Shown here in pieces: positions 42,570-57,038 of a DNA stretch of 64,000 nucleotides. The stretch is from a phage. Within the stretch, counting starts at the first letter, position 1; every line of letters starts with the position of its first letter. The notes below the pieces were generated by a model. The model ran no database searches, had not been told where the DNA came from, and saw nothing but the letters and a program-made list of their open reading frames with translations. The translations under genes and the position numbers were made by a program. The DNA lies in the sequence record PZ027503.1; one strand, 5' to 3'.

Positions 42570-42953
42570 TTATTCAATGCAAGCATTATTTGCATCTTCA
42601 ATGCGATCTTTCACCCATTGAAGACGTAACGTGTTGGTATGACACGCCAAGTTTATACACTCTGAAAGGTAATCCATGCAATCTGCATTGAACGGAAGAT
42701 TGTAGTCCAGCCCTGCACATGTAAATTGTTTCCTCATTTCATATTTCAAACGGTCTAACAAACTATCCCGCCATCTTCTATCTTCTTCTCTAGTTGTCTC
42801 ACCAACAAAATCATCTACATAATCTACCAGACAACCACATAAGCCACTCGTTGTGCGATTCATTGCAGGATAGTTGGCAATCCATGCTTTATAGAAGCGA
42901 AGCAATGTTGCACTACTCAACGGAATATTATTTGTCATTTTTCTCTCCTTCAT
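42570..42953 (-). CDS. paralogous small-protein family A member
   Basis: FYKAWIANYP...SGLCGCL...QF.CAGLDYNLPFN...RLQWVKDRI. Confidence 0.5.
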   Translation of the reverse strand: MKERKMTNNIPLSSATLLRFYKAWIANYPAMNRTTSGLCGCLVDYVDDFVGETTREEDRRWRDSLLDRLKYEMRKQFTCAGLDYNLPFNADCMDYLSECINLACHTNTLRLQWVKDRIEDANNACIE

Positions 42954-43272
42954 AATCCTGAATTCTATCTAACACCCATTGTATACGATGTTTGTTTTTA
43001 TGGCAAATATGTTTTTTATGTTCGAAGGTGTATTCTTCATAACCACCTTCATTAAACGGGAAATTGTAATCTAGTCCTGCACTAATAAACTGTGATTTCA
43101 TCTCCTGTTGTAGACGAGGTAACAGTTCATCAGGGTATGTTCCCTCTACATACTTAATCAAACATATGCACAAACCACTCGTTGTGTGACCTTCTACCTC
43201 ACCAGTAAGCCAAGCTTTGTAAAACTTCATTAGACGTAAGCTACTCAACGGAACATTTCTACTCTCTTGCAT
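42928..43272 (-). CDS. paralogous small-protein family A member
   Basis: FYKAWLTGE...SGLCICL...QF.SAGLDYNFPFN...RIQWVLDRI; GAGAGGAG RBS. Confidence 0.5.
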   Translation of the reverse strand: MQESRNVPLSSLRLMKFYKAWLTGEVEGHTTSGLCICLIKYVEGTYPDELLPRLQQEMKSQFISAGLDYNFPFNEGGYEEYTFEHKKHICHKNKHRIQWVLDRIQDYEGEKNDK

Positions 43273-43793
43273 GATAATCTCCTCTCATTCTTAGCCATCT
43301 TTCATGGCAATCATCAATCACCAACATCATACGATCAATCTTAGGGAATTACAATCGAATTATCATAGGGGATTCCTATCAATTATCCCATATATACCGA
43401 TTATTTTTGACACCCCACTCTTGTATAAAAAGTAACCCAAAATATCTACGGGGAGAGATTATTTCGGGACACCCTGTTTCATGGCAATCATGGCAAGAAT
43501 ATCTAATAGAATCAATATGATATGGCAAAAATCATGGCGCATACGTAAGAAGTGCTTAACGCGAACTTTCGGGCCGTCAGGTCCACGCAGCGACAATTCC
43601 CAAATATCATGCGAATGAGAATAATTATCATTCGTATTCAATGACTTATGCAAGGCTCATGCCAACATAGCGACAAGGTGGGCCACTTGATTATAAATCA
43701 CACAAACACTTATTTATCAATAGGTTGGCAACTTCATCATATGACGGAACAATGTCAACTAATCCCGCTCATAACAGACAGACTATTATTTAT

Positions 43794-43807
43794 ATGAGAA
43801 TGATTAT
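43794..43807. repeat. ATGAGAATGATTAT direct repeat, copy 1
   Basis: Identical 14-mer at 56494-56507; both within near-palindromic AT-rich sites. Confidence 0.4.
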
Positions 43808-44202
43808 TATTTAAACGTTTATTAACATAAAACCAGAATAAATCAAGAATTTTCTGATTTTATTTACGTTTAAGAGAAGATGCTCAACATCCTACCGGAT
43901 CGCCGTTGGCAATCCTGCGGATATTTACGCCCCCATGATTAAGGTTTATCTCTTTTCTTAGTGCTCAACATTCCCGCCCGTGGCGGTAACATTTCGCCCC
44001 CAAAATTATTGACTTTTATTCTATTATGTGCATAGTGTGCAATGTATCGGAATGATGATAATCATCCTCCCATTGCCCCCAATAATTATTGCCATGCTAA
44101 TGATCTCATATTGTAATTATTACAATGATTATTGTTATTGCGCTAATGTTATGATCTTGGTAATTACATATAATGCTAATAATAAGCCAGCGCAATGAGT
44201 GT

Positions 44203-44218
44203 AAGCGTAATTACGCTT
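44203..44218. repeat. perfect 16-bp palindrome AAGCGTAATTACGCTT
   Basis: Self-complementary over 16 bp. Confidence 0.5.
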
Positions 44219-44379
44219 GCAATTATTGCAAGCTACGCAATAACAAGAAATAACCGTCACCGATGGTTATGATTGTTGGGGTGTAGTTGGCTTATTATTA
44301 GCTCGCTATGTGTCCGGCATAGCGTGCTAATGATGATCCTGGGAATGATTCGTTTTGTAATGATTTCATTCAGTCACTA

Positions 44380-44620
44380 TTATGGCAATAGTTATTATTT
44401 TAATGGTTTCGTTTGTTATTGTTCGTTAGTTGGTTGTTTTGTCGTGTTATCGTTATTTTGCTTAGTATTCATCATGGTTTGATTGTTTGTCGTTATCAAT
44501 CATCTTGCTATTATTCCTTTGATTATGATTAGTTTGCTTATTGTTTTATGTTGTTTGTTGGTTAGTTGTTGCGAACTATTATCAACATTATAATTATGCG
44601 CTTATATTGCATAGATAATC
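44380..44620. repeat. strand-skewed GT-rich low-complexity tract
   Basis: About 240 bp composed mostly of T and G on the plus strand with degenerate GTT/ATT repeats. Confidence 0.4.
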
Positions 44621-44852
44621 ATGGGTAGATGATAATGGTTATCATTGCACTAGAAAGGAGGTAGAAGGGTGTTTTTGATGGTTTGTTGTTGGTTGTTGAT
44701 CGATTTTAACCGCTATAAATGGCTCTCTAACAGCCTGTTACCCTGGGAGGTATGGTTATTCGTTTAATGGTTGATTAGCTCGATACCGCGATTTATTCAA
44801 TTTTGTTCTGTGTCGGTTTTTCATAGGCGAAAGCTATCAACATTGTTCGGGC

Positions 44853-44889
44853 AAAAAGAAAGGGCGCTTGGTGCGCCCTTGTTTTGTTG
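44853..44889. terminator. bidirectional terminator
   Basis: GGGCGC-ttggt-GCGCCC hairpin flanked by AAAAAGAAA and TTGTTTTGTTG. Confidence 0.5.
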
Positions 44890-44893
44890 TCAA

Positions 44894-45313
44894 TTATAAC
44901 GCTTCATAGATTGAGTAGATCCGGTTTGCCAGGTCATTACGAAAGCGGAATTTTTCATCACGTTTGATCATCAGATCCTTAAAACCGCATTCTTTCAGTG
45001 CTTCATTAACTTTACTGCGGCATACTTTCATATTGTCCTGCGCGTCACCAATAAACTTGTTACTATGATGCATTGCTTTGATCTCTTCTTCCAGGACCAG
45101 GGCAACTACACGGATCGGATCAAGCTGATACGCGGTAACATCCATGCGGCATTGTAAACGGCTTTTAACGTCTGCCACCGGATATACTGCAACCTCTTCC
45201 CCGTCAACGTTCACAATAACCAATTTACCATCGATTTCGAAGCCTTTAGCGGCGCTACCGTGACAAAAAGCGTTGTCGAAGGAGTAAGCTGGATTATTTG
45301 ATTTAATGTTCAT
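44894..45313 (-). CDS. hypothetical protein
   Basis: ORF in track; first gene of the GC-richer sub-region. Confidence 0.5.
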   Translation of the reverse strand: MNIKSNNPAYSFDNAFCHGSAAKGFEIDGKLVIVNVDGEEVAVYPVADVKSRLQCRMDVTAYQLDPIRVVALVLEEEIKAMHHSNKFIGDAQDNMKVCRSKVNEALKECGFKDLMIKRDEKFRFRNDLANRIYSIYEAL

Positions 45314-50685: not shown

Positions 50686-50711
50686 AAAAAGAAAGGGCGC
50701 TTGGTGCGCCC
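50686..50711 (-). terminator. intrinsic terminator (minus strand)
   Basis: GGGCGC-accaa-GCGCCC followed by TTTCTTTTT on minus strand. Confidence 0.55.
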
Positions 50712-50719
50712 TTGTTATG

Positions 50720-50866
50720 TTAATCCTCTAAATCCATCCAATTATATTTGTCACTCTTCCCGCGCTTTGTTTTATTGCGCTTGTCGCCTTTGCGGATCAC
50801 TTCCTCGTTCCAGGCCTTGCGGATCTTGGAAGATTGAATTTTTTCTGCGCGATTAGATGTATTCAT
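50720..50866 (-). CDS. small basic protein (48 aa)
   Basis: Below track cutoff; AAAGAGGAAA RBS. Confidence 0.35.
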   Translation of the reverse strand: MNTSNRAEKIQSSKIRKAWNEEVIRKGDKRNKTKRGKSDKYNWMDLED

Positions 50867-56234: not shown

Positions 56235-56262
56235 TCTTGACAAGCCCAGGGATCGGGCTTAT
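56234..56262 (+). promoter_or_regulatory. sigma70-like promoter
   Basis: TTGACA, 17-bp spacer, TATACT; no sizeable ORF downstream. Confidence 0.5.
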
Positions 56263-56269
56263 ACTGTTT

Positions 56270-56480
56270 TACATACAGAAGAGGAAGCGCCACCCCACGG
56301 CGTAAAGGCGGGGCTAACATACCAGGGCGCTGGTTGGAAGGTTGATCGCCGGTAGGCTGGGCGCTATATATTTGTAAAGAAATGTAAAGATAAAATAATC
56401 GCTTGCTTTCCTGGCTGGATCTGTTATTCTTATTACATGGCGAGGGGACACGGGAGCGCGAGACAAACACCACCCCTGCG
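56270..56480 (+). ncRNA. candidate non-coding transcribed region (unclassified)
   Basis: Downstream of consensus promoter; GC-rich with several potential helices; no ORF over 20 codons. Confidence 0.2.
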
Positions 56481-56493
56481 CGTCATTCTCTAG

Positions 56494-56507
56494 ATGAGAA
56501 TGATTAT
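56494..56507. repeat. ATGAGAATGATTAT direct repeat, copy 2
   Basis: Identical to 43794-43807; lies in Fur-box-like near-palindrome GAGAATGATTATCATTC. Confidence 0.4.
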
Positions 56508-56617
56508 CATTCACCTTATTAAATAAGAATCAATCTCATTTATAAACTTAAATGCGAATCATTATCATTTGCATTTCCATATGAGAACTCTTCTCATTCT
56601 CACCTGCATAAATTTTT

Positions 56618-56660
56618 GTAAACTTTAAATTTTGCTTTTGTACTTTCATTTTTGTAAAAG
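56618..56660. repeat. about 40-bp direct repeat, copy 1 (AAACTTTAAATTTTG...TTTTGTAAA)
   Basis: About 35 of 39 positions identical to copy at 56756-56798; period about 138 bp. Confidence 0.5.
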
Positions 56661-56755
56661 CAAAAAAACTTTAAATACTGTGGGCGCGCAAAATTTTTAA
56701 AATTTTCCTTGACTTTTGAGTTTTGTTTTGTATCTAACATTTTAAGATAATTTTC

Positions 56756-56798
56756 CTAAACTTTAAATTTTGGTTTTCAACTTTCACTTTTGTAAATT
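56756..56798. repeat. about 40-bp direct repeat, copy 2
   Basis: See 56618-56660; each copy followed by a shorter related AAAACTTTAAATA motif. Confidence 0.5.
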
Positions 56799-56957
56799 CT
56801 TAAAAAGTTTAAATAATTTGAGGGATTTTTGAGATAATGGATAGTGGGAATTTGATATAACCTTTAATCTTATTAGTAGACCTTCAGGAACCCACTTAGA
56901 TCGAATCCTAGTGATGCAAACTGAAAAAGATAAGGGTTTGTATAGGACAAAATAACA

Positions 56958-56990
56958 GGCTCTCTACGGTGCTGTAGGAGCCTTATTTCT
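56958..56990. terminator. bidirectional terminator-like hairpin
   Basis: GGCTC.CTAC-ggtgct-GTAG.GAGCC followed by TTATTTCT (plus) and TGTTATTTTG (minus). Confidence 0.45.
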
Positions 56991-57038
56991 ATGCTACAAA
57001 GTGACACCTTTGTTCTAAAAATGAAAAAAGTTAAAATA

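Follow-up and report, generated by a model that had tools for sequence, protein, structure and literature searches.

A probable genome-end control region with Fur-like palindromes and a conserved folded element in a Phapecoctavirus

We analyzed a gene-free interval at positions 43273-44852 of a 64,000-nucleotide stretch of phage DNA (sequence record PZ027503.1; this whole stretch is referred to as the window). By its relatives in megablast searches the window derives from a Phapecoctavirus, that is, a phAPEC8-like myovirus of ~150 kb within the subfamily Stephanstirmvirinae. The interval is bounded by the start, at 43272, of one minus-strand gene (42928-43272) and by the stop, at 44894, of another (44894-45313). 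It holds the sequence that forms the direct terminal repeat (DTR) of related genomes, palindromes resembling the binding site of the host regulator Fur, promoter-like sites, a folded element of ~150 nt and a terminator (Table 1). We read it as a control region at the genome end, or concatemer junction, of a Phapecoctavirus, and estimate the probability of this reading at about 70%. For whole-genome analyses we used a composite of ~150 kb, in which the window was completed with the remainder from phage ECO340P1 (97.8% identical).

Table 1. Features of the interval, with positions in the window (a dot marks features listed for neither strand).
Feature	Position	Strand	Remarks
Leader and promoter region, 285 bp	43273..43557	-	Between terminal repeat and first early leftward gene
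Promoter-like TTGTAA-17-TATGAT	43354..43326	-	Within leader
Left boundary motif GTGCTT^AAC	43552..43560	+	Repeat begins at 43558
Direct terminal repeat, 327 bp	43558..43884	.	Single copy in this permuted or collapsed assembly; two in virion DNA
Operator site 1 (putative)	43611..43635	.	Core TGAGAATAATTATCA (43616-43630) in 25-bp near-palindrome GCGAATGAGAAT-A-ATTATCATTCGT; Fur 19-mer 15/19
Promoter-like P_L, TTGCAT-N18-GATAAT	43624..43653	-	-10 in site 1; faces early genes; window's clade only
IHF consensus WATCAANNNNTTR (TATCAATAGGTTG)	43715..43727	+	About midway between operator sites 1 and 2
Operator site 2 (putative)	43795..43809	.	TGAGAATGATTATTA; conserved
Right boundary motif ATGCT^CAAC	43880..43888	+	Last base of repeat 43884
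Extra tandem copy of post-boundary module, ~80 bp	43885..43965	.	CAACAT, then GC hairpin, then CGCCCCC
Fur-like palindrome GGAATGATGATAATCATCC	44049..44067	.	15/19; clade-specific
Multi-helix element, candidate non-coding RNA	44175..44324	+	Five helices, ~150 nt
P1	44175-89 with 44288-302	+	Closes junction
P2 hairpin	44192-44228	+	Includes 16-bp palindrome AAGCGTAATTACGCTT
P3	44232-38 with 44281-87	+	Leads into P4
P4 hairpin	44250-58 with 44262-70	+	RNAalifold helix
P5	44304-11 with 44317-24	+	3' of P1
C-depleted spacer	44336..44606	+	Between folded element and P_R; sequence unconserved between genera
Degenerate upstream operator (putative) TGCGAACTATTATCA	44570..44584	.	Right half perfect; 60 bp from site 3
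Promoter-like P_R, TTGCAT-N18-GATAAT	44607..44636	+	-10 in operator site 3
Operator site 3 (putative) TGATAATGGTTATCA	44630..44644	.	One mismatch to 7-1-7; 14-15/19
Predicted untranslated transcript, ~245 nt	44643..44886	+	P_R to terminator; inferred
Open reading frame, 32 aa, hydrophobic	44669-44767	+	GTG start; just 3' of P_R; best internal ribosome-binding site
Bidirectional intrinsic terminator AAGGGCGC-TTGGT-GCGCCCTT	44860..44880	.	Ends last minus-strand gene (45313..44894); could end + strand transcripts

A gene-free interval around the genome ends

A megablast search with 43273-44852 matched 74 phage records, nearly all of them Phapecoctavirus, and 47 of these matched at coverage of at least 80%, mostly with 94-98% identity. 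At blastn sensitivity 140 records were retrieved, including Justusliebigvirus (phi92-like) at ~72% and a few Klebsiella and Citrobacter relatives. Conservation in related phages, which the original prediction for this interval had named as a check on its own proposals, was thus found: the DNA is present in Phapecoctavirus and partly alignable to Justusliebigvirus. That prediction had also called the interval AT-rich, which is correct but only mildly so (36.3% GC against ~39% in the window).

The lack of credible coding potential noted in the original prediction was borne out. The ten longest open reading frames (ORFs) inside the interval matched 0 PHROG families, whereas 10 of 10 flanking genes, searched as a control, did match; these flanking PHROGs are of unknown function, and a Pfam search of the flanking genes gave neither a domain nor a DNA-binding candidate. 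Nearly all records of relatives carry no annotation here, the exceptions being ETEC-TG, EP57, PsgM04F and WPEC1/2/6, which list short 'hypothetical proteins'. If the interval did code for several small proteins, as annotated by ETEC-TG, WPEC1, PsgM04F and EP57, this would fit the presence of short ORFs, the 6-8 'hypothetical proteins' of some records and the ORF just downstream of P_R, whose ideal Shine-Dalgarno sequence AAAGGAGG stands at a spacing of 7 nt. That ORF, however, has a premature stop in Schickermooser and has lost its start codon in phiWec190, although the GGAAAGGAGG block itself is conserved; judged by these alignments it is probably not a gene. More generally, stops, lost start codons and frame-shifting indels break the ORFs in close relatives, most records annotate nothing, and base-pairing and palindromes rather than codons shape the conservation. 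With no PHROG match to any internal ORF we rejected coding potential, and regard a set of small proteins as extremely improbable. A tRNA/tmRNA scan of the window found none, and Rfam, at gathering as well as permissive thresholds, yielded no family in the window.

Terminal repeats of phi92-/phAPEC8-type phages are already on record, and locating the present one is routine annotation. Direct terminal repeats end Stephanstirmvirinae genomes according to a 2025 paper (PMC12695924), and Korf et al. give 328 bp for the repeat of Schickermooser (PMC6563267); the published repeats of relatives come from PhageTerm or coverage. When we compared both ends of records, exact terminal redundancy amounted to 329 bp in Schickermooser, 328 bp in Mt1B1_P17 and 328 bp in WPEC1, and the annotation of phi92 (FR775895.2) places DTR-L at 1-343 and DTR-R at 148270-148612 (343 bp). 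BLAST placed these repeats on the repeat segment of Table 1 with 97-98% identity. The ends are fixed: every repeat begins AACGCGA and finishes ...GCT before CAACA, and these points are also where further records begin or stop. The Mt1B1_P17 and WPEC1 records begin AACGCGAATTTTCGGG..., which corresponds to the left end of the repeat in the window, ECO340P2 and Ro121lw begin or end at the CAACAT of the right boundary, and many database records start or stop inside 43273-44852. Across genera the left boundary reads ...AAGAAGTGCTT^AACGCGAA and the right one ...TTTAAGAGAAGATGCT^CAACAT, or ...AAAGTAGGCT^CAACAA in Justusliebigvirus; both edges carry TGCT(N)AAC, conserved between genera. In relatives the same sequence stands at both genome ends, whereas the window is a junction form with one copy. 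The earlier suggestion of a packaging site was therefore essentially right, in that the exact terminal redundancy of relatives puts the physical ends and the direct terminal repeat inside the interval.

Read as in Schickermooser and phi92, which is the reverse complement of the window, the genome starts with the repeat, the 285-bp leader and the first small early genes and closes with the last gene, the terminator, ~1 kb of non-coding DNA and the repeat. The first coding sequence of Schickermooser lies at 613 nt from the left end, which equals the 328/329-bp repeat plus 284-285 nt.

The ~80-bp duplication that follows the right boundary creates a third GTGCT^CAAC at 43961-43969, with the hairpin CCGCC-CGT-GGCGG after it (43974-43986). 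Schickermooser, phiWec190, phiWec179 and Justusliebigvirus lack the duplication, and WPEC1 has a 58-bp version of it. We placed the end of the repeat at 43884 because the WPEC1 repeat stops at the first copy of the duplicated module. The small post-boundary hairpin differs in sequence between phages with its pairing kept (CCGCC/GGCGG vs ATCGC/GCGAT). We did not count the BME3 record (PP239276.1) as independent evidence for the two ends. It appears to contain ~860 bp of internal redundancy, with both the repeat and the folded element occurring again towards its right end, and its DTR feature is misplaced, 'DTR-L' lying off the true terminal 342 bp.

Fur-like palindromes and promoter-like sites

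The original prediction had pointed to three near-palindromes resembling the enterobacterial Fur box, and these are read from the sequence at the positions it quoted (GAGAATAATTATCATTCG at 43617-43634, and the palindromes of Table 1 that start at 44049 and 44630). We scanned for the Fur 7-1-7 consensus TGATAATnATTATCA and used 2000 dinucleotide-preserving shuffles of the region as the null; the consensus, and the usual overlap of Fur sites with -10/-35 elements, were taken from PMC11353095. The region contains 2 sites with at most one mismatch, against a shuffle mean of 0.008, and 3 with at most two, against 0.075. For the Fur 19-mer at a threshold of 14/19 or better there are 11 matches, compared with a shuffle mean of 0.37 and a maximum of 4. 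The resemblance, with sites at 14-16/19 and 0-2 mismatches to the 7-1-7 consensus, thus exceeds chance. That it might be a coincidence of AT-richness, as had been considered, was not borne out, because the dinucleotide-preserving shuffles give far fewer such sites.

Six 7-1-7 matches with at most two mismatches occur in the 64-kb window, three of them in the region (43616, 43795 and 44630) and two at 56495 and 56553. At no more than one mismatch the composite genome has only 43616, 44630 and 56495, and its five best sites are confined to two non-coding regions. No encoded Fur homologue was found in the composite genome. The three sites of the region are conserved in phiWec190, phiWec179 and Justusliebigvirus, site 1 in every genus aligned; the palindrome at 44049 is absent from the same three relatives. 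Site 1 forms an array of NATWAT-like hexamers in which length differences between clades are multiples of six. Site 2, which had escaped the original prediction, is a perfect 7-1-7 (TGATAATGATTATCA) in Justusliebigvirus. The phage consensus, TGAGAATnATTATCA, is slightly asymmetric and often followed by TTTGCAT. The proposal of an operator cluster is supported: the sites are non-random against shuffles, conserved across genera and restricted to two non-coding regions, and two of the palindromes form a promoter-like -10.

The pattern TTGCAT-N17-19-GANAAT matches twice in 64 kb. Both matches lie in the region, and each has its -10 inside a palindrome (P_L and P_R). An overlap of putative operator and -10 is seen at both predicted promoters, of which P_R is conserved and P_L clade-specific, each matching 8/12 to consensus. 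At P_R the spacing is fixed, and neither TGCAT nor TTATCATT varies among Phapecoctavirus, Justusliebigvirus, Klebsiella phage phi1_175008 and Avunavirus, the equivalents being TTGCAT-N18-AAGAAT in Justusliebigvirus and TTGCAT-N18-GAGAAT in Av-05 and 24-2-1 (Vequintavirinae). Each clade with P_R has a second operator 58-60 bp upstream, and the counterparts of the pair formed by 44570 and site 3 are 58-60 bp apart in Justusliebigvirus and Av-05. The distance from operator to terminator end is 245-247 nt in all four clades. This tail has no conserved ORF among the clades compared, and identity over its 3' half (44772-44860) is still ~80% in Avunavirus (Vequintavirinae). The case for P_R rests on conservation because its sigma-70 match is only 8/12. 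The terminator at the end of the tail is annotated as such in the Schickermooser record. A near-repeat of its surroundings (44853-44888) occurs ~5.8 kb off at 50686-50721, with 97% identity over 36 nt.

Av-05 (Avunavirus) and 24-2-1, both Vequintavirinae, possess an unannotated region of >1.2 kb with the right-hand module (Av-05 1-1340), consisting of operators 60 bp apart, TTGCAT-N18-GAGAAT, a tail of ~247 nt and the same terminator. This suggests that the architecture is older than the split of Stephanstirmvirinae and Vequintavirinae.

The second non-coding region, of ~800 bp (56235-57038), lies between convergent genes and carries the Fur-like palindrome twice, 58 bp apart: TGAGAATGATTATCA at 56495 (16/19 to the Fur 19-mer, minus strand) and TGCGAATCATTATCA at 56553. 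A near-consensus promoter, TTGACA-17-TATACT (56237-56265, +), faces untranslated DNA that is GC-rich; AAACTTTAAATTTT and TTTTGTAAA occur as repeated motifs, and there is no Rfam match in the region.

The folded element, the C-depleted spacer and the leader

RNAalifold, applied to a MAFFT alignment of 14 homologues, predicted the five helices of the element. On that alignment 98.2% of cells are paired, 12 pairs are changed on both sides, and 0 of 500 shuffles reach the score; slid controls gave 23-52% paired. In an alignment of 24 sequences 99.2% of 1196 cells are paired, double-sided changes affect 14 pairs (96 cells), and on each of five measures the alignment surpasses 500 of 500 shuffles. 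This larger alignment was fitted to a covariance model and leans towards structure, and the MAFFT result serves as the independent check. P1 occurs in the compensatory forms AAGCCA/TGGCTT, AACGCA/TGCGTT, ACCGCA/TGCGGT and AACACA/TGTGTT, and P5 as CGCTATG/CATAGCG, CGCTACG/CGTAGCG and GCCTACG/CGTAGGC. In P4 the sequence is almost wholly replaced between homologues with the pairing kept.

Compensatory substitutions keep the element paired, and its structure is + strand-specific. Canonical cells number 936/944 on the + strand (56 of them G.U) as compared with 882/944 on the minus strand (2 G.U), and in 21 of 21 homologues the + strand is more stable by ~19 kcal/mol. For the element of the window the folds have -77.6 kcal/mol (z -8.7) on the + strand and -52.6 (z -4.6) on the minus strand. 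The covariance model, built from the MAFFT alignment, gives a single strong match (at least 140 bits) per genome locus; the weaker ones are antisense overlaps of it. A pattern scan of metagenomes returned 54 loci, ~10 of which are true homologues by the covariance model and the rest chance matches. Rfam 15 gave no match at the gathering score and chance-level hits only at E up to 10.

The sequence does contain the perfect 16-bp palindrome of the original prediction (AAGCGTAATTACGCTT, 44203-44218), and the other palindromes with a TAATTA core that it mentioned are read at 44080-44170. The 16-bp palindrome is the tip of one hairpin in the ~150-nt covarying element, which that prediction had not seen. 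A perfectly conserved alternative hairpin, GCTTGCAA-TTA-TTGCAAGC (general form -nnn-) at 44214-44232, is mutually exclusive with P2 and P3, and RNAalifold flips between the two depending on the sequence set; the pair may constitute a conformational switch. A long-range pairing I12 (44129-42 with 44236-49) was dropped because phiWec190 does not conserve it. At the place that corresponds to the folded element, Av-05 has an analogous, non-homologous structured domain (669-892; -100.4 kcal/mol, z -7.9).

From the modelled structure we lean towards the folded element being an RNA, the 5' domain of a + strand non-coding transcript; a literature search found no transcriptomes for these phages. Such an untranslated transcript would begin with the folded domain, run across the C-poor spacer, a poor substrate for Rho, and stop at the bidirectional terminator. 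Across clades the spacer measures 255-433 nt and cannot be aligned between genera, and its + strand has 5.5-12% C and 14-19% G. The original prediction had described 44380-44620 as a tract made almost entirely of T and G. These two bases do form a majority of 70% (T 52%, G 18%, A 20%, C 10%), which is far from 'almost entirely', and the property that is conserved is C depletion. Minus-strand RNA, in which C exceeds G over the spacer, could provide a Rho-dependent back-up that halts read-through from the last gene before the repeat. A classical rut site for Rho on this RNA was dismissed, since the tract, in spite of C>G, is A-rich with few YC dimers; it is kept as a secondary idea only. A Chi-like role of the G/T-rich strand towards RecBCD was rejected on orientation, reasoning from the known polarity of Chi, as it is the 5' and not the 3' end of this strand that lies at the nearby DNA end.

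On the other side of the repeat, the leader contains a block (43372-43412) that is almost invariant across genera. It also holds tandem repeats at 43338-43387 and 43479-43496 (a 24-bp unit x2.1, ATCATAGGGAATTACAATCGAATT, and TCATGGCAA x2). A 20-nt direct repeat, CCaTcTTTCATGGCAATCAT, was noted as well, in two copies 177 bp apart. The first two genes beside the repeat (42570-43272, minus strand; 114 and 127 aa) are paralogues that both match phrog_2510, of unknown function, and their 3' ends are near-identical in DNA.

Readings of the region and comparison with known systems

If the interval is the terminal control region, replication would produce head-to-tail concatemers with one repeat copy per junction, and terminase would cut at the two boundary motifs with a fill-in that duplicates the repeat, as in T7-type phages. 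The product would run from repeat, 285-bp leader and early genes to last gene, terminator, ~1 kb of non-coding DNA and repeat. Early leftward transcription would begin within or beside the repeat, and the palindromes would be operators of one dimeric repressor, host Fur or a phage protein, that gates P_L and P_R via their -10 hexamers. Operator sites 1 and 2 within the repeat possibly form an IHF-bent complex, to judge from the motif between them; in phiWec190 and Justusliebigvirus the letters of the IHF consensus are retained and its N positions differ, which is weak evidence alone.

Several observations weigh against this picture. The window holds one copy of the repeat, and the ends of this phage are taken from relatives 97-98% identical. 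The boundary motif is insignificant by count, with 24 matches at no more than one mismatch in 64 kb, the number expected by chance; we rejected the repeated GTGCTYAAC as a significant signal and kept it solely for its position at both mapped ends. P_R, at 8/12 to the sigma-70 consensus, was missed by a promoter scanner, P_L is clade-specific, and neither site 2 (43795) nor 56553 has a recognisable promoter. No promoter is conserved across genera for the folded element, a TATAAT/TACAAT abutting P1 in some clades only, and no terminator lies between the element and 44860. For the 245-nt tail only a weak consensus structure emerged, and the argument from strand is weakened there, since strands rich in G and U fold better through their composition. 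This reservation does not extend to the folded element, for which shuffle-based z-scores control composition.

As to what binds the palindromes, we rate at slightly short of even odds that it is a phage-encoded dimer, either an early repressor or the small terminase subunit. The IHF-bent sites in the repeat would then make up a packaging complex like lambda cosB, and the likeness to Fur would be convergent. A phage consensus (TGAGAATnATTATCA-TTTGCAT) that departs consistently from that of Fur speaks for such a protein, as do the 179 bp between sites 1 and 2 in the repeat, with the conserved IHF consensus near the midpoint, and the vertical inheritance of the module over two phage subfamilies on Escherichia and Klebsiella hosts. 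However, the flanking genes offer no candidate protein (PHROGs of unknown function, no Pfam domain), and the same motif 12.6 kb away (56495, 56553) and on promoters is unlike a pure packaging signal. More tentatively, and as one option within the preferred explanation, the palindromes could be genuine host Fur boxes; Fe2+-Fur would then repress P_R and P_L according to host iron status, or the phage DNA would titrate Fur and derepress the host iron regulon. Anaerobic ribonucleotide reductases need iron, and this phage codes for one. The absence of a Fur homologue from the composite genome is also in keeping with host Fur, as are scores of 14-16/19 to the 19-mer, 7-1-7 sites with 0-1 mismatch including the perfect one of Justusliebigvirus, the hexamer array of site 1 with its indels in multiples of 6, and the overlap with the -10, as at Fur-repressed promoters (PMC11353095). 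Fur boxes would not account for the left half of most phage sites being GAGAAT instead of GATAAT, and the shared asymmetric right flank ATCATTTGCAT hints at a different or additional protein; gene regulation also leaves the promoterless sites in the terminal repeat unexplained. No description of Fur sites in these phages was found in a literature search.

The folded element might act as DNA, either as a priming or initiation signal on the single-stranded + strand, comparable to G4 oric and the phiX174 primosome assembly site, or as hairpins in concatemer-junction processing, comparable to the T7 intermediate. Chung, Nardone and Hinkle reportedly described in 1990 such a T7 hairpin intermediate beside its repeat. 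The element here occupies the stretch 290-440 bp away from the repeat boundary, on the right-end side of the genome. It lacks a clearly delimiting promoter or terminator, single-stranded DNA tolerates G.T pairs, and Avunavirus has its own structured domain in the same place. But a five-helix fold with four invariant G.U positions, strand-specific stability and an apical hairpin of variable length is the usual signature of a structural RNA, and a cruciform would be strand-symmetric; we place a DNA role on the unlikely side. Quite unlikely, in our view, is that the region is or contains an origin of replication, as had been suggested earlier. Non-coding, mildly AT-rich DNA with the repeated short motifs AATGATT and GCTAAT, promoters without downstream genes and a position beside the genome end would suit an origin; T7 phiOL and phiOR are similarly placed near genome ends. 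Yet neither cumulative GC nor AT skew over the composite genome turns in the region, and the extremes of GC skew (window 24972 and 63469) are both switches of gene orientation, although skew is a weak test in phages in which it follows transcription. The region has no DnaA boxes (TTWTNCACA), and its dispersed short motifs form no tandem iteron array in this genus.

In our preferred reading, the non-coding DNA round the repeat is a conserved, organised control region of Stephanstirmvirinae and, in part, of Vequintavirinae, with a structured element that is supported by covariation and has no Rfam family. A literature search found no description of this non-coding region in these phages, and neither literature nor records were found to describe the operators, the promoter module shared with Vequintavirinae or the folded element. 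The mapped ends are useful in themselves, as many records of the genus are arbitrarily permuted or carry spurious small genes here. Should Fur indeed bind, the phage would be one of the rare strictly lytic ones that read or manipulate the iron status of the host, a point of practical interest given the wide use of these phages in therapy cocktails. An RNA nature of the folded element would make it a new phage RNA family, one readily accessible to genetics, since compensatory mutants can be designed from the alignment. A wider proposal, which we consider unlikely, is that this lineage and its relatives in two subfamilies couple transcription at the genome end to host Fur, through operators in the repeat and at the promoter of a phage non-coding RNA, which Fur would control as it does ryhB, possibly with titration of Fur by phage DNA. 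Beside it would stand a new family of structured RNA with a five-helix core of ~150 nt, possibly the 5' domain of a C-depleted, Rho-resistant transcript of ~0.7 kb, serving end processing, replication or host takeover.

Among known systems, the folded element, a strongly conserved, single-copy, multi-helix feature of 150-185 nt in the non-coding DNA by a genome end, recalls the phage-encoded structured RNAs phi29 pRNA and T4 RNA C and D. There is no sequence or structural homology to them and no Rfam match, and the candidate RNA here comes without a link to packaging. In lambda cosB the IHF site I1 lies between terminase (gpNu1) sites, and the present repeat likewise combines, beside the DNA ends, two putative protein-binding repeats and an intervening conserved IHF consensus; unlike cosB, it concerns repeat-type rather than cohesive ends, has a spacing of 179 bp and shares its binding motif with promoters elsewhere. 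The small-RNA gene ryhB is under Fur repression, and the P_R operators similarly stand upstream of a predicted untranslated transcript that would end at an intrinsic terminator; the 245-nt tail has no similarity to RyhB or any other family in Rfam. The E. coli Fur box (GATAATGATAATCATTATC, built of two 7-1-7 repeats that overlap; consensus from PMC11353095) is matched in score (14-16/19, 0-2 mismatches), hexamer array and overlap with a predicted -10. What differs from Fur-box promoters is the setting in a virulent phage, the left half that is usually GAGAAT, and the pair of sites inside the terminal repeat, which no obvious promoter accompanies.

T7 and T3 have a short direct terminal repeat of 160 bp, pac signals, phiOL/phiOR and a hairpin intermediate at the concatemer junction. 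The present phage is an unrelated 150-kb myovirus on host RNA polymerase, with a repeat twice as long, ~1 kb of non-coding DNA on one side and no sequence similarity to them. It shares with them a short exact repeat with fixed ends, flanking non-coding DNA with gene-less promoters and palindromes, early genes right after one repeat copy, and the implied staggered cutting of concatemers with fill-in. The records of phi92 and Schickermooser and the papers found do not describe operators, promoters or folded element. Their repeats are homologous to that of the window in sequence and position, with matching boundaries (AACGCGA... at the start, ...TTTAAGA-AAG-nGCT at the end) and the same flanking gene order, and compared with them the window shows one collapsed copy plus the ~80-bp tandem duplication of the post-boundary module.

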